Numbered from the stretch's first letter, positions 10,574 through 22,057 are shown. The stretch: 64,000 bases of DNA from Minisyncoccota bacterium (GCA_035547315.1 DASZVH010000004.1:12107-76106); one strand, 5' to 3'. A program made the numbers and translations. Notes: generated from the sequence alone by a model not told the origin.

Positions 10574-11659
10574 ATGGCGTTCTTCTCCGGCATCTTCGGC
10601 GGCGGCGAGAAAAAGGGCGGCAGCGTGCTCGGCGTCGATATCGGCTCCTCCTCGCTCAAGGTGGTGCAGCTGCGGCAGGCCGCCGGCAAGGCCGTGCTCG
10701 AGACCTACGGCGAGCTCGCGCTCGGCCCCTATGCCGGCAAAGCGGTCGGGCTCGCGACCGAACTCTCCGCCGACGCGGTCGCCGCGACGCTCAAGGACCT
10801 GGTGCGCGAGGCCTCCGTTACCACCAAGGAGTGCGGCGTCTCGATACCCTTCGCCCGTTCGCTCCTGACCTTGGTCGAGCTTCCCAAGGGCAAGAACCGC
10901 GAGGAGCAGAAGACCATCATCGAGCTCGAGGCGCGCAAGTATATCCCGGTGCCGATCAACGAGGTGCAGCTCGACTGGTTCGTCGTGCCCGAGGAGGGGC
11001 GCAGGGGCGCGGCGGAGAACAACCGGGTAGAGGTGCTCCTCGTCGCGGTGCACAACGACGAACTCAAGCTCCTCGACGCGGCGGTCAAGGGCGCGGATCT
11101 CCACGCCAAGTTCTTCGAGATCGAGATATTCTCGACCATCCGCGCGGTCGTAGACGAGCCGGTCAAGCCGGTCATGGTGCTCGATATCGGCGCCGCGACC
11201 ACCAAAGCCTACGTCGTCGAGCACGGCGTCGTCGCGCTCTCGCATACGATCCCGCACGGCGGGCAGGACGCGACCCGCGCGATCGCGACCGAGTCGGGAG
11301 TGCCGCTCGCGCGCGCCGAGCAGCTCAAGAAGGAGGCCGGGCTCGGCGACGGGCAGGGCGTGAAGCAATCGCTCGAGCTCATCTTCTCGGGCATCTTCGC
11401 CGAGGCGAAGCGCGTGTTCCTCCAATACGAGACGCAGCGCAGCAAGACGATCGCGCGCGTGGTGCTCACCGGCGGCGGCGGCGTGACCAAGGCGCTCGAG
11501 CAATACGCGCAAGGGCTCTTCGAGGTGCCGGTCAAAGTCGCCGACCCCTTCGCCAAGACGGAGACGCCCGCTTTCATGCGGCCGGTCTTGGAGGCCATCG
11601 GGCCCGAGTTCGCGGTCGCGGTAGGGATCGCGCTGCGCCTCCTCGAGGAGAGCCGCTAG
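10574..11659 (+). CDS. pilM: type IV pilus assembly protein PilM (actin-like ATPase)
   Basis: GVDIGSSSLKVV ... VLDIGAATT ... LTGGGG actin-fold motifs. A TATACT hexamer lies 8 nt upstream of the ATG. Confidence 0.85.
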   Translation: MAFFSGIFGGGEKKGGSVLGVDIGSSSLKVVQLRQAAGKAVLETYGELALGPYAGKAVGLATELSADAVAATLKDLVREASVTTKECGVSIPFARSLLTLVELPKGKNREEQKTIIELEARKYIPVPINEVQLDWFVVPEEGRRGAAENNRVEVLLVAVHNDELKLLDAAVKGADLHAKFFEIEIFSTIRAVVDEPVKPVMVLDIGAATTKAYVVEHGVVALSHTIPHGGQDATRAIATESGVPLARAEQLKKEAGLGDGQGVKQSLELIFSGIFAEAKRVFLQYETQRSKTIARVVLTGGGGVTKALEQYAQGLFEVPVKVADPFAKTETPAFMRPVLEAIGPEFAVAVGIALRLLEESR

Positions 11660-11723
11660 CCCGCGAGGTTGTACACAGCGCGCGGCCGCTCCCGCGCGCC
11701 GCGCCTGTATACTGTCTAATGAA

Positions 11724-12389
11724 ATGGCTCTCCCGCCGACCATACCGACCTCGTTCGTGCCCCGGCCCGGCGCCGCGCCGCGCGCCGCGCGCGGCGGCGG
11801 CCTCTCAAGCGCGTTCCTCTTCCTCTCGCTCGCCGTCTTCGTCCTCGCTCTCGTGCTGGCGGCAGGCGTCTTCCTCGATGGCCGGTATCTGGCGGGGCAG
11901 GTCGCGAGCAAGGACGTCGCGCTCAAGACCGCGCAGGCGCAGATCGACCAGACCACGGTCGCGAGCTTCATCGCCCTGCAGCAGCAGCTCATCCAGGGCG
12001 AGACGCTCCTTGACGACCACACCGCCCTCTCCCAGTTCCTCGACGCGCTCGGGCTGCTCACGATACAGGACGTCCGCTTCAGTCAGCTCTCGGTGACGGT
12101 CAACGACGACCACTCCGCGACCGTTTCGCTCGCCGGCACGGCCGCCTCCTTCAACGCGCTCGCGGCCGAGAGCGCGGCGCTTGCGACCGAGTCGCGCATC
12201 AAGGACGCCGTCTTCTCCGGCATCGCCATCAATAAGAACGGCGTCGGCTTCTCGCTCTCGGCGACGCTCGACCCGTCTTTGGTCGAGATGCCGGCGACGG
12301 GCTTCTCCGCCGCCGATGCGCCCGCGCCCGCGCCCGCGCAGAGCTCGGGCGGCGAGAGCGCGACGAGCACCGCCACCACCACGCCATGA
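11724..12389 (+). CDS. pilN: type IV pilus assembly protein PilN-like
   Basis: Single N-terminal TM helix, a coiled-coil region and an Ala/Ser-rich tail. Position matches pilN. Confidence 0.5.
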   Translation: MALPPTIPTSFVPRPGAAPRAARGGGLSSAFLFLSLAVFVLALVLAAGVFLDGRYLAGQVASKDVALKTAQAQIDQTTVASFIALQQQLIQGETLLDDHTALSQFLDALGLLTIQDVRFSQLSVTVNDDHSATVSLAGTAASFNALAAESAALATESRIKDAVFSGIAINKNGVGFSLSATLDPSLVEMPATGFSAADAPAPAPAQSSGGESATSTATTTP

Positions 12390-12928
12390 CCCGCCTTCTC
12401 CCGCTGATCCTTCTCGCCGCCGCCGCCGGTATCTTCTTCGGCTATGTGAGCCCGCAGTACGAGGGCCCGATCGCCGCGGCCAAGAGCACCATCGCCGCCG
12501 ACAACCAGGCGCTCGCCGCCGCCGCCGCCTATACCGCCAAGGAGAACCAGCTCGCCGCGGCGCGCGACCAGATCGCGCCGGACGATCTCGCGCGGCTCAC
12601 CGCGCTCCTGCCCACCTCGGTCAACAACGTCCAGGCTATCCTCGACCTCGACAACCTCGCGGTGCGTTCCGGCTTCCCGCTTGCCGCCATCAACGTGGTC
12701 TCGGGCGGCAGCGCGGGCACGGTGCAGGGCATCACGGAAGACCAGAGTGTCGGCTCGGTCGATCTCTCGATCTCCGGCAGCGGGAGCTATGCCGTCTTCC
12801 GCACCTTCCTCGCGGGGGTCGAGCGGAGCGTCCGCCTCCTCGATGTCCGCACGCTCTCGATCACGAGCGCGGACTCGGGCATCTACTCCTACTCCATGAC
12901 GCTGCGCCTCTACTGGCTCAAATCCTAA
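12386..12928 (+). CDS. pilO: type IV pilus assembly protein PilO-like
   Basis: N-terminal TM helix plus coiled coil. ATGA overlap with pilN. Confidence 0.45.
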   Translation: MTRLLPLILLAAAAGIFFGYVSPQYEGPIAAAKSTIAADNQALAAAAAYTAKENQLAAARDQIAPDDLARLTALLPTSVNNVQAILDLDNLAVRSGFPLAAINVVSGGSAGTVQGITEDQSVGSVDLSISGSGSYAVFRTFLAGVERSVRLLDVRTLSITSADSGIYSYSMTLRLYWLKS

Positions 12929-20317: not shown

Positions 20318-20880
20318 CCAAGCCTTCCGCCGCCGGCTTCACCCTGATCGAGATGCTCGTCTCGCTTGCGCTCTTCGCGCTCGTGATGCTCATGGTCTCC
20401 TCCGCCTACCTCATCATTATCGCGGCCAATCGCCAGGCGCAGGCGGTGGCCTCCGCCACCAATAACCTCGCCTTCGCACTCGAGACCATGACCCGCGAGA
20501 TCCGGACCGGCGGCGGCTACAATTGCGGCAGCAGCACGGGCGGAGATTGTCCAAGCCCCAAGCCGAGCTTCTATTTCACCGACGCGGGCGACAACTACGT
20601 CTCCTACGGCCTCGTCTCCACAGGCTCGGGCACCCACGGGCTCGCCGAGTGCGTGAGCCAGAGCGACTTCTGCGCCCCGGCCACACTGCTTACCGACTCC
20701 TCCGTCAACATCACGGCGCTCCAGTTCTCCGTCCAGGGCACCCGCACCTACTCGGGCTCCGGAGACATCATCCAGCCGCAGGTGCTCATGACACTCTCCG
20801 GCACCGTCTCGGCGGGAGCGCAAAAGACGGTGCCCTTCACCGTCGAGACGGGCGCGACCATGCGCGGCACCGACCTATGA
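20314..20880 (+). CDS. minor pilin / pseudopilin
   Basis: MTKPSAAG|FTLIEMLVSLALF. ATGA overlap. Confidence 0.6.
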   Translation: MTKPSAAGFTLIEMLVSLALFALVMLMVSSAYLIIIAANRQAQAVASATNNLAFALETMTREIRTGGGYNCGSSTGGDCPSPKPSFYFTDAGDNYVSYGLVSTGSGTHGLAECVSQSDFCAPATLLTDSSVNITALQFSVQGTRTYSGSGDIIQPQVLMTLSGTVSAGAQKTVPFTVETGATMRGTDL

Positions 20881-21545
20881 ACATGAAAGAAGTCATACGA
20901 TATGAGTCGGAAGAGGCAAGGAATCGACGCGCCGCGTACGACGCATCGCGTACGGCTGGATTCACGCTCGTCGAGACCATGGTCGCGATCGCGATACTCA
21001 CCGTCGCGATCGCGGGGCCACTGCTCACGGCCGAGCGCGCAGCCGCCGCCGCCTATGCCGCCAAGAACGAGCTCATCGCCTCCTATCTCGCCCAGGAGGG
21101 GATCGAGTATGTGCGGGCGATGCGCGACGACACCTATCTGGCCGATTACGCCTCTGAGTCAACGGAACCGGGGCTCTCGGAGCTCGCCTGGAGCGATTTC
21201 CTCTCGAGCAACGCCAATACCTCGATCAAGCAGTGCGCCGCCAACGGCAAGGGCTGCGCCTACGATCCAGAGGGCGTGGGCATGTGCACCGGCAACCTCC
21301 TCAACTGCTCGATGATCGCCTGCAGCAAGAAGTACTGCACCGACTACCCGCTCTACCTCACCGCAGGCGGTTTCTATACCCCGCAGGGCACGAGCATCGG
21401 CGCTGCACTGACCCCCTTCTCCCGCCAGATCACCTTCCGGGCCGCGGACCCCCAGTCTGAGGAGGTGGTATCGACCGTCGCTTGGAGCACGGACGGCGTG
21501 CCCTATACGGTAACCGTCACCGACACCCTTACGCCATGGCAATAA
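20877..21545 (+). CDS. minor pilin / pseudopilin (27 aa leader)
   Basis: MNMKEV...SRTAG|FTLVETMVAIAIL. ATGA overlap. Cys-rich C-terminus. Confidence 0.5.
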   Translation: MNMKEVIRYESEEARNRRAAYDASRTAGFTLVETMVAIAILTVAIAGPLLTAERAAAAAYAAKNELIASYLAQEGIEYVRAMRDDTYLADYASESTEPGLSELAWSDFLSSNANTSIKQCAANGKGCAYDPEGVGMCTGNLLNCSMIACSKKYCTDYPLYLTAGGFYTPQGTSIGAALTPFSRQITFRAADPQSEEVVSTVAWSTDGVPYTVTVTDTLTPWQ

Positions 21546-22057
21546 CCATACGCGGCAGGCGGCAGGAAGAGGGGAGCAGGGGGTTCACGCTGCTCATTGC
21601 AATGATTTTCGTCGGGGTGGTGCTCGCCTTCGCCGCGACGCTCGGCGCGCTCGGCTACAAGCAGTCGATCCTCGCCGGCAACGCCATCCAGTCGCAGTAC
21701 GCCTTCTATGCCGCGGACGCCGGGCTCGAGTGTCTCCTTTACAATGACCAAGGCCCGAGCCAGGATCTCTTCGACTACGCCAACGCCGGGACGCAGGACG
21801 TCTCCGCCTCCTGCAACGGCACTTCCTACACCTACACCGTGCTCGCGTATACGCCGACCTACTGGGCGCTCGAGGCGGCTCAGGTCGCCGCCGCCACGAG
21901 CACCAGCTGCGCCGACCTCACGGTCTATAAATACGCCTCCACGCAGAGCGACGGCAAGACGACGTATCTTTTCTCCCAGGGCTACAACCTCCCCTGCGGC
22001 GCGGTTACGGCCGGCAACGGGCGCCTCGTCGCGCGCGGGCTCGAGGCGGCCTATTGA
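21536..22057 (+). CDS. pilin-like protein (PilX-like, no Glu at +5)
   Basis: [16 protein letters not shown]|[16 protein letters not shown], followed by Cys pairs. Confidence 0.4.

Follow-up and report, generated by a model that had tools for sequence, protein, structure and literature searches.

Type IV pili (T4P) encoded alongside competence genes are a trait of the whole Candidate Phyla Radiation (CPR), with co-localised PilB, PilT, PilC, PilM, PilN, PilO and PilD, abundant pilins, ComEC, DprA and ComFC, and no PilQ (PMC6744442; also PMC5220378, PMC9894109, PMC11809585). Here we describe such a cluster at positions 10574-22057 of a 64,000-nucleotide (nt) stretch of DNA, referred to below as the window, from a Minisyncoccota bacterium (GCA_035547315.1 DASZVH010000004.1:12107-76106). 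It shares with the published CPR sets (Meheust et al. 2019, PMC6744442; Castelle et al. 2017, PMC5220378) the same seven Pil proteins, the pilins, the lack of PilQ, ComFC, and the interpretation in terms of DNA uptake or host interaction. Because a secretin-less T4P with competence genes is already a published hallmark of CPR, the cluster is of a known type, and its architecture is not new; its less familiar feature is a gene for a stand-alone receiver (REC) between pilB and pilT. A term search of the same two papers returned no mention of this receiver, of the orf99 family described below, or of comFC and ligA as the boundaries of the cluster, all of which are present here, and the open-access literature that we searched yielded no description of a receiver in pilus clusters of CPR. 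Judging from its genes, we consider it likely that the cluster specifies a complete type IVa-like pilus machine of Candidatus Paceibacterota (CPR/Patescibacteria), retractile and without a secretin, including REC as a proposed motor switch.

The region holds 16 uninterrupted open reading frames (ORFs) on the + strand, with zero internal stops. The genes are ordered pilM, pilN, pilO, orf99, pilB, REC, pilT, pilC, pilA1, pilA2, pilD and minor pilins 1-4, all on the + strand, with comFC divergent upstream and ligA directly downstream. Every component named in the original prediction was verified (PilM, PilN, PilO, PilB, PilT, PilC, PilD, two PilA-like pilins, four minor pilins, the receiver and the divergent ComFC), although that list had overlooked orf99, a conserved gene of 99 codons between pilO and pilB. 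The extensive ATGA start/stop overlaps that it described correspond to four such overlaps, each confirmed in the sequence. Frameshift or pseudogenisation had been named as a possible objection; the ORFs are intact, and the same proteins, with the same starts, are found in two other public assemblies processed with an independent gene caller, which excludes a frameshift or an assembly artefact.

The closest relatives of PilT, at 73-79% identity, come from metagenome-assembled genomes (MAGs) of Kaiserbacteria/Paceibacterota, and a Candidatus Paceibacterota MAG carries a protein with 100% identity (locus tag VHC68_00920). When all cluster proteins were compared by tblastn with 80 genome loci, the full order, from divergent comFC through pilM-N-O-orf99-pilB-REC-pilT-pilC, one or more pilA genes, pilD and minor pilins 1-4 to ligA, was found in L001, L003-L009, L011, L012 and L023, and recognisable versions of the cluster occurred across Parcubacteria. 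The closest relatives and the identical protein place the genome in the CPR. That reduced CPR genomes invest heavily in pili is already published (PMC6744442).

The REC gene (15009..15410) encodes a CheY-like receiver of 133 amino acids (aa) that matches Response_reg at 5.4e-19, with 68.8 bits against a cutoff of 30.2. It starts 2 nt past the pilB stop, and its own stop overlaps the pilT start (ATGA). Its relatives in the PDB are receivers of the CheY/PhoP type, and every one of the 24 aligned orthologs retains the acidic pair D9/D10, the phospho-acceptor D53, T/S83 and K105. Because all these phospho-acceptor residues are conserved, REC appears to be a functional, phosphorylatable single-domain response regulator.

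Starting from PilT, we found REC between pilB and pilT in 23 of the 33 CPR loci that hold both genes; in nine of the ten loci without it, fewer than 60 nt separated pilB from pilT, and in the tenth (L020) a pilin gene stood between the two. Non-CPR loci contained no REC, and their pilB and pilT genes abutted or were separated by other genes. Starting conversely from REC, 19 of 20 fully testable metagenome loci at no less than 43% identity were flanked by pilB upstream and pilT downstream, and the pilB-REC-pilT context occurred in 41 of 80 metagenome loci overall. Distant receivers without these flanks mostly lay directly after a histidine kinase. Together, the two tests indicate that this receiver subfamily is dedicated to pilus motor genes, and the CPR clusters without it indicate that pilus function as such does not require it. 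In two Patescibacteria relatives, a PilA-like pilin gene is inserted at this site, between pilB and REC in L035 (~6093-6600) and between pilB and pilT in L020 (~5450-5965), which has no REC.

PilG and PilH of the Pil-Chp system play a role comparable to that of EmvR and DrdR from Xanthomonas. The latter are receiver-only proteins that bind PilB, or PilB and PilT, and thereby alter ATPase activity (PMC11973254, PMC13507683). Like REC, these proteins are receivers with an intact phospho-acceptor and no output domain, and they bind PilB and/or PilT, or control where these motors localise. Unlike that of the Paceibacteria REC, their genes do not lie between pilB and pilT; PilG/PilH depend on the CheA-type kinase ChpA, DrdR has two REC domains, and in the Paceibacteria family the conserved Lys is followed by the signature K-A-(S/H)-x-x-P-S-E, where K-P is usual. 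A histidine kinase encoded at another site would phosphorylate D53 of REC and, in one phosphorylation state, REC would bind PilB and/or PilT, as EmvR and DrdR do in Xanthomonas, biasing extension versus retraction. Its conserved position, tight packing and intact phospho-acceptor residues strengthen the proposal that REC controls the balance between the two motors.

Alternatively, REC might not regulate the motors at all; it could serve as a phosphate sink, regulate another target (PilM or PilC, transcription via a partner, or cell division) or be no more than a conserved passenger, its position reflecting co-expression only. This would suit a protein with neither an output domain nor a demonstrated partner, which ten of the 33 CPR clusters manage without and whose nearest non-pilus relatives are ordinary kinase-adjacent receivers. 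However, the subfamily occurs almost exclusively between pilB and pilT, is packed against both motor genes, and has direct precedents in REC-only proteins that bind PilB/PilT (PMC11973254, PMC13507683), so that we judge this explanation unlikely and favour a role for REC at the pilus motors.

The rest of the gene content is that of a retractile, secretin-less T4a-like pilus. The actin-like cytoplasmic assembly protein PilM (10574..11659) is well supported (PF11104 PilM_2, 2.4e-41; TIGR01175, 160.9 bits, above the cutoff of 133). The next gene (11724..12389) encodes a bitopic PilN-like protein with an invariant N-terminal S-F-x-P motif; PF05137 PilN is matched at an E-value of 0.007 by the window protein and by 9 of 11 orthologs, at best with 5.4e-7, and the PilN profile found no match among PDB sequences. 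The PilO-like product of 12386..12928 matches GspM (NF040576) at 1.6e-6, under the cutoff, and the profile of its orthologs finds Myxococcus xanthus PilO (3jc8) at 3.3e-7. Both PilN and PilO are thus weak on the window proteins alone and are upheld by their orthologs. PilC, the platform protein (16521..17729), contains two T2SSF repeats (2.3e-55) and scores under the equivalog cutoffs of the GspF/PilC NCBIfam models. PilM, PilN and PilO, together with orf99, would form a membrane alignment complex around this PilC platform.

Of the two ATPases, PilB (13252..15006) has an MshEN-type N-domain (T2SSE 9.3e-118, MshEN 4.4e-14). Since it misses the equivalog cutoffs of both GspE (486.6 bits) and PilB (477.7 bits), its assignment holds at the superfamily level, with a PilB-like architecture. 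PilT (15407..16465) is clearly above the cutoff of its family (TIGR01420 PilT/PilU, 426 bits versus 319.1) and carries AVANLIRA, a motif resembling AIRNLIRE. PilB is the extension ATPase and PilT the retraction ATPase. By eye, neither of the two 24-residue cyclic di-GMP (c-di-GMP)-binding motifs in the MshEN domain of PilB (13252-13430) has its leading Arg or its terminal Gln. The C-terminal part of PilB, likewise read by eye, retains only two Cys of the usual tetracysteine motif, and PilB may for these reasons not sense c-di-GMP.

The prepilin peptidase PilD (18897..19664) scores above the cutoff for A24_N_bact (3.6e-17) and slightly under it for Peptidase_A24 (25.0 bits versus 26.5), and its catalytic Asp pair (YD..H and G.xD) is invariant across 10 orthologs. 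This peptidase would be expected to cleave the class III leaders of the two PilA-like and the four minor pilins. The features expected of type IVa systems were all found, namely a PilB-type ATPase, PilT, PilC, PilM-N-O, a PilD with two Asp, and class III pilin signals. As expected for CPR (PMC6744442), the cluster contains no domain of the diderm PilQ secretin or of PilP. Secretin-less T4a-like machines with PilT are likewise found in monoderms (Clostridium, Streptococcus sanguinis) and in Saccharibacteria (PMC9894109); the present cluster differs from these in its four compact minor pilins in a GspH/J/I/K-like order, in the embedded REC, and in the lack of large modular adhesin-type pilins within it.

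The highest-ranking NCBIfam names for PilB, PilC and PilO are GspE, GspF and GspM, and the minor pilins resemble GspH/I/J, as would be expected if the cluster encoded a type II secretion system (T2SS) with a pseudopilus instead of a pilus. Nevertheless, all these Gsp matches fall under equivalog cutoffs, PilT is above its cutoff and is accompanied by PilM and PilN, none of GspD secretin, GspC and GspL occurs in the cluster, and the CPR envelope has no outer membrane (PMC6744442), which leaves a secretion system barely credible and a pilus as our reading. Two other classes of pilus were considered and rejected: the ComG pilus of Firmicutes, on account of the scores for ComGA (257 bits versus a cutoff of 300) and ComGB (124 versus 240) and the presence of PilT and PilMNO, and type IVb/Tad pili, given the 8-aa leaders of the PilA-like pilins, a score of 51 bits for the TadA model on PilB, and the confinement of long leaders to minor pilins.

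The gene overlooked by the original prediction, orf99 (12933..13232), encodes a bitopic membrane protein of 99 aa that is conserved at the same place in 11 relatives and is present between pilO and pilB in all close relatives. Its C-terminal motif G-R-x-D-P-F-A-P is invariant. The 35 database homologs are all annotated as hypothetical, none with a Pfam domain; orf99 itself has no Pfam match, and its profile found nothing among PDB sequences. An AlphaFold2 model places a transmembrane helix at residues 6-31, followed by short helices and an extended tail, with no globular fold and a pTM of 0.27. The place of orf99 is that of PilP in diderm clusters, and orf99 may be a CPR-specific pilus assembly component in the PilP position. 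It has no detectable similarity to PilP, and a resemblance of its motif to a PilP-like DPF motif was not supported, as a Pfam scan of 12 orthologs with E up to 10 returned only noise.

Six genes encode pilins, and in five of them (pilA1, pilA2 and minor pilins 1-3) the N_methyl motif is above the Pfam cutoff. The PilA-like pilins pilA1 (17801..18241; N_methyl 1.3e-9) and pilA2 (18363..18887; 2.7e-9) are almost identical over their first 35 N-terminal residues, and both have a leader of 8 aa, counted, as for all leaders here, through Gly-1. The minor pilins resemble known types weakly: minor pilin 1 (19625..20317; N_methyl 5.6e-8) is GspH/FimU-like, with weak GspH/ComGE matches and a 20-aa leader; minor pilin 2 (20314..20880; 1.9e-8) is GspJ/ComGF-like (ComGF 2.6e-6, GspJ 4e-4, under cutoffs), with an 8-aa leader; and minor pilin 3 (20877..21545; 1.5e-6) is PilV/GspI-like (PilV 2.2e-6, GspI 3.5e-4, under cutoffs), with a leader of 28 aa, or 26 from Met3. 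Minor pilin 4 (21536..22057), a protein of 173 aa in the PilX/GspK position with a 16-aa leader, has a G|F(T/A)LL(I/V)A signal without Glu5 and four conserved Cys. It has a pilin fold whose top structural match is the minor pilin PilA of S. sanguinis and which also matches GspI and GspK.

This arrangement recalls GspH-I-J-K of T2SS and FimU-PilV-PilW-PilX of T4a pili, which likewise comprise four genes, three with Glu5 and the last, in the PilX/GspK position, without it. Unlike in those sets, the order here is H-J-I-K, the family matches lie under cutoffs, minor pilin 4 is far smaller than GspK, and three of the four minor pilins have leaders of 16-28 aa. The four minor pilins would serve to prime the filament and to cap it. 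Type IVb pilins typically have leaders of 15-30 aa, and such lengths also occur in monoderm T4P, in which leaders can exceed the 5-7 aa of Gram-negative T4a pilins; among T4a-type minor pilins they are unusual, albeit not unprecedented.

The original prediction had pointed to unusually long leaders in two pilins, and both proved long, at 20 aa for minor pilin 1 and 28 or 26 aa for minor pilin 3. These leaders could be annotation artefacts, with the true starts nearer the cleavage site, particularly as orthologs of minor pilin 3 often carry an ATG three codons before the Gly. However, no downstream start codon that would give a short canonical leader exists in either gene, since ATG, GTG, TTG and CTG are absent between the proposed start and the Gly, except for Met3 of minor pilin 3. 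Furthermore, the independent caller picked identical starts, with minor pilin 3 called as 222 aa. The start of minor pilin 1 sits within the last 40 nt of pilD, and in all nine orthologs an ATG lies at the same place in the 3' end of pilD, giving leaders of 9-23 aa. We therefore regard misplaced starts as very improbable and retain the long leaders. Their conservation, as judged from the orthologs, holds only for minor pilin 1: leaders of minor pilin 3 range from 3 to ~33 aa, indicating that its long leader in the window is lineage-specific.

The description of the cluster as a single mega-operon was not borne out to the same extent. Reading of the sequence revealed -10-like hexamers (TATACT/TAGAAT) at 10536, 10561, 11708, 17768 and 18348, and also at 19556 inside pilD. 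For comFC, pilM, pilN and pilA2 the hexamer precedes the ATG by 7-10 nt (for pilA2, a TAGAAT 9 nt upstream), and for pilA1 by 27 nt (TATACT at 17768); no Shine-Dalgarno sequence is visible at any of these five genes, which suggests leaderless or near-leaderless mRNAs. A scan for sigma-70 consensus promoters found none, and in a consensus scan terminator-like sites were no commoner than in shuffled sequences. Downstream of pilA1 there is, however, a strong terminator-like hairpin (18278..18315, + strand) with a 13-bp G+C-rich core stem, a GGAG loop and a GUUUCUCC tail, which was absent from the consensus scan because its U-tract is short. The segment 18268-18320 folds with 18 pairs at -37.1 kcal/mol (z -6.9 versus shuffles), and the hairpin is likely a terminator or attenuator parting pilA1 from pilA2. 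The boxes and the hairpin argue for several transcription units rather than one operon, probably pilM, pilN to pilT, perhaps pilC, pilA1, and pilA2 to ligA, with very short or no 5' leaders, so that a single operon is not established. In this arrangement, pilA1 would be a separately and probably highly expressed major pilin.

On the other side of a divergent 51-nt spacer from pilM, comFC (9908..10522, - strand) encodes a ComF-family phosphoribosyltransferase-like protein. ComF (TIGR00201, 1.4e-19, 70.8 bits versus a cutoff of 233.55) and GntX (8e-19) are its top families, both under cutoffs, as is Pribosyltran (25.9 bits versus 26.3). With ComF/ComFC proteins it shares the adjacency of its gene to DNA-uptake pilus genes, and it may also share their phosphoribosyltransferase-type C-terminal domain. 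At the other end, ligA (22054..24000, + strand) encodes an NAD-dependent DNA ligase with DNA_ligase_aden, OB, HHH and BRCT domains; its start is ambiguous between a TTG at 22054, overlapping the minor pilin 4 stop (TTGA), and an ATG at 22072, chosen by the independent caller, which gives 642 aa. Both flanks are conserved: of the 22 CPR loci that extend far enough, 16 have comFC next to pilM in divergent orientation, and of the 20 that do so at the other end, 16 have ligA after the pilin genes.

From this gene content, the pilus would serve DNA capture for uptake and/or host-cell attachment. A role in DNA uptake is favoured by the conserved comFC and ligA flanks and by the published nucleotide auxotrophy of CPR, which cannot synthesise nucleotides and would be expected to obtain DNA by scavenging (PMC6744442). 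The same observations, and the matches of PilB to ComGA (1.4e-76) and of PilC to ComGB (6.6e-36), might indicate a dedicated competence pilus only, equivalent to the Gram-positive ComG pilus and without adhesive or motility functions. Yet PilT and PilM/N/O are missing from ComG systems, the matches to ComGA and ComGB score under equivalog cutoffs and lower than those to PilB/GspE and PilC/GspF, T4P of cultivated Saccharibacteria drive host association and twitching (PMC9894109), and the tandem divergent pilA paralogs suggest surface-recognition roles. We consider an exclusive competence function somewhat unlikely, and prefer a pilus for DNA capture, attachment or both.

Local searches of the window found exactly one REC and one kinase, the latter an orphan seven-transmembrane (7TM) histidine kinase (36082..37650, + strand; HisKA_7TM 9e-14, HATPase_c 2.5e-23) without an adjacent response regulator, which is a candidate phosphodonor of REC. 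CheA, CheW and MCP proteins were not seen among the window ORFs scanned or read. We tentatively propose, as a possibility short of an even chance, that Paceibacteria possess a vertically inherited REC subfamily, encoded between and co-expressed with PilB and PilT, that acts as a phospho-switch between extension and retraction, and that the orphan 7TM kinase feeds REC, forming a two-protein pathway that would couple the motor to an external cue, either host contact or DNA. Such a switch may replace the c-di-GMP input seemingly lost by the degenerate MshEN domain of PilB. Three co-directional genes (32457-36079) lie immediately upstream of the kinase. The first encodes a 515-aa protein without a Pfam match, which by eye resembles an adenylate-forming (PaaK/F390-synthetase-like) enzyme, and the other two encode a nitroreductase-like and a ThiF-family protein; the three may make up a small cassette for modification or biosynthesis.

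Several observations weigh against these interpretations of the cluster and its switch. REC is missing from 10 of the 33 CPR clusters, and PilN, PilO, PilB versus GspE, ComF and the minor-pilin types all score under curated family cutoffs. In the window and in close relatives, ComFC lacks the N-terminal four-Cys zinc finger of known ComF/ComFC proteins, and scores far under the TIGR00201 cutoff; CxxC...CxxC is retained in deeper Parcubacteria orthologs (compared with L012, L013, L015, L019, L028, L032, L035, L038 and L039). LigA is a housekeeping replicative ligase, and its adjacency may for this reason carry no functional meaning. comEC, dprA and comEA were not found in the 64-kb window, by Pfam scans of 20 ORFs and reading of the other translations. 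Finally, the proposed partner of REC is a candidate as the sole kinase of the window. Among the 80 genome and 80 metagenome loci scanned, a kinase lay beside the pilus REC in none of 64 loci (none within 4-10 kb), and kinases adjoined only more distant, non-pilus receivers; as relatives show no kinase adjacent to the pilus REC, its pairing with this kinase is a guess.

Elsewhere in the window, an island of low G+C content (49847-57800; 42-50% versus ~64%) starts right after a tRNA-Gln gene (49847-49920). Its genes encode a GmrSD_N/DUF262 protein, a large serine recombinase, an AccI-like restriction endonuclease and an Eco57I-like methyltransferase, and it is probably a mobile island for defence that has become integrated. 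A direct repeat of the tRNA-Gln 3' end bounding it was not found. A LOOT RNA (Rfam RF03000, 81.5 bits) lies among tRNA genes at 40234-40355 on the - strand.

T4P are thought to be the main organ with which CPR cells find hosts and scavenge DNA and, to our knowledge, nothing is known about how these pili are controlled. The boundaries of the pilus cluster, set by comFC and ligA, and the orf99 family provide annotation markers for Paceibacteria genomes. The pilB-REC-pilT module offers a concrete hypothesis for pilus regulation in minimal cells that is testable in vitro. Its players, REC, the two motor ATPases and a single candidate kinase, are all small, soluble proteins or domains. If true, it would represent a minimal pathway from cue to motor in cells that are otherwise almost without signalling.

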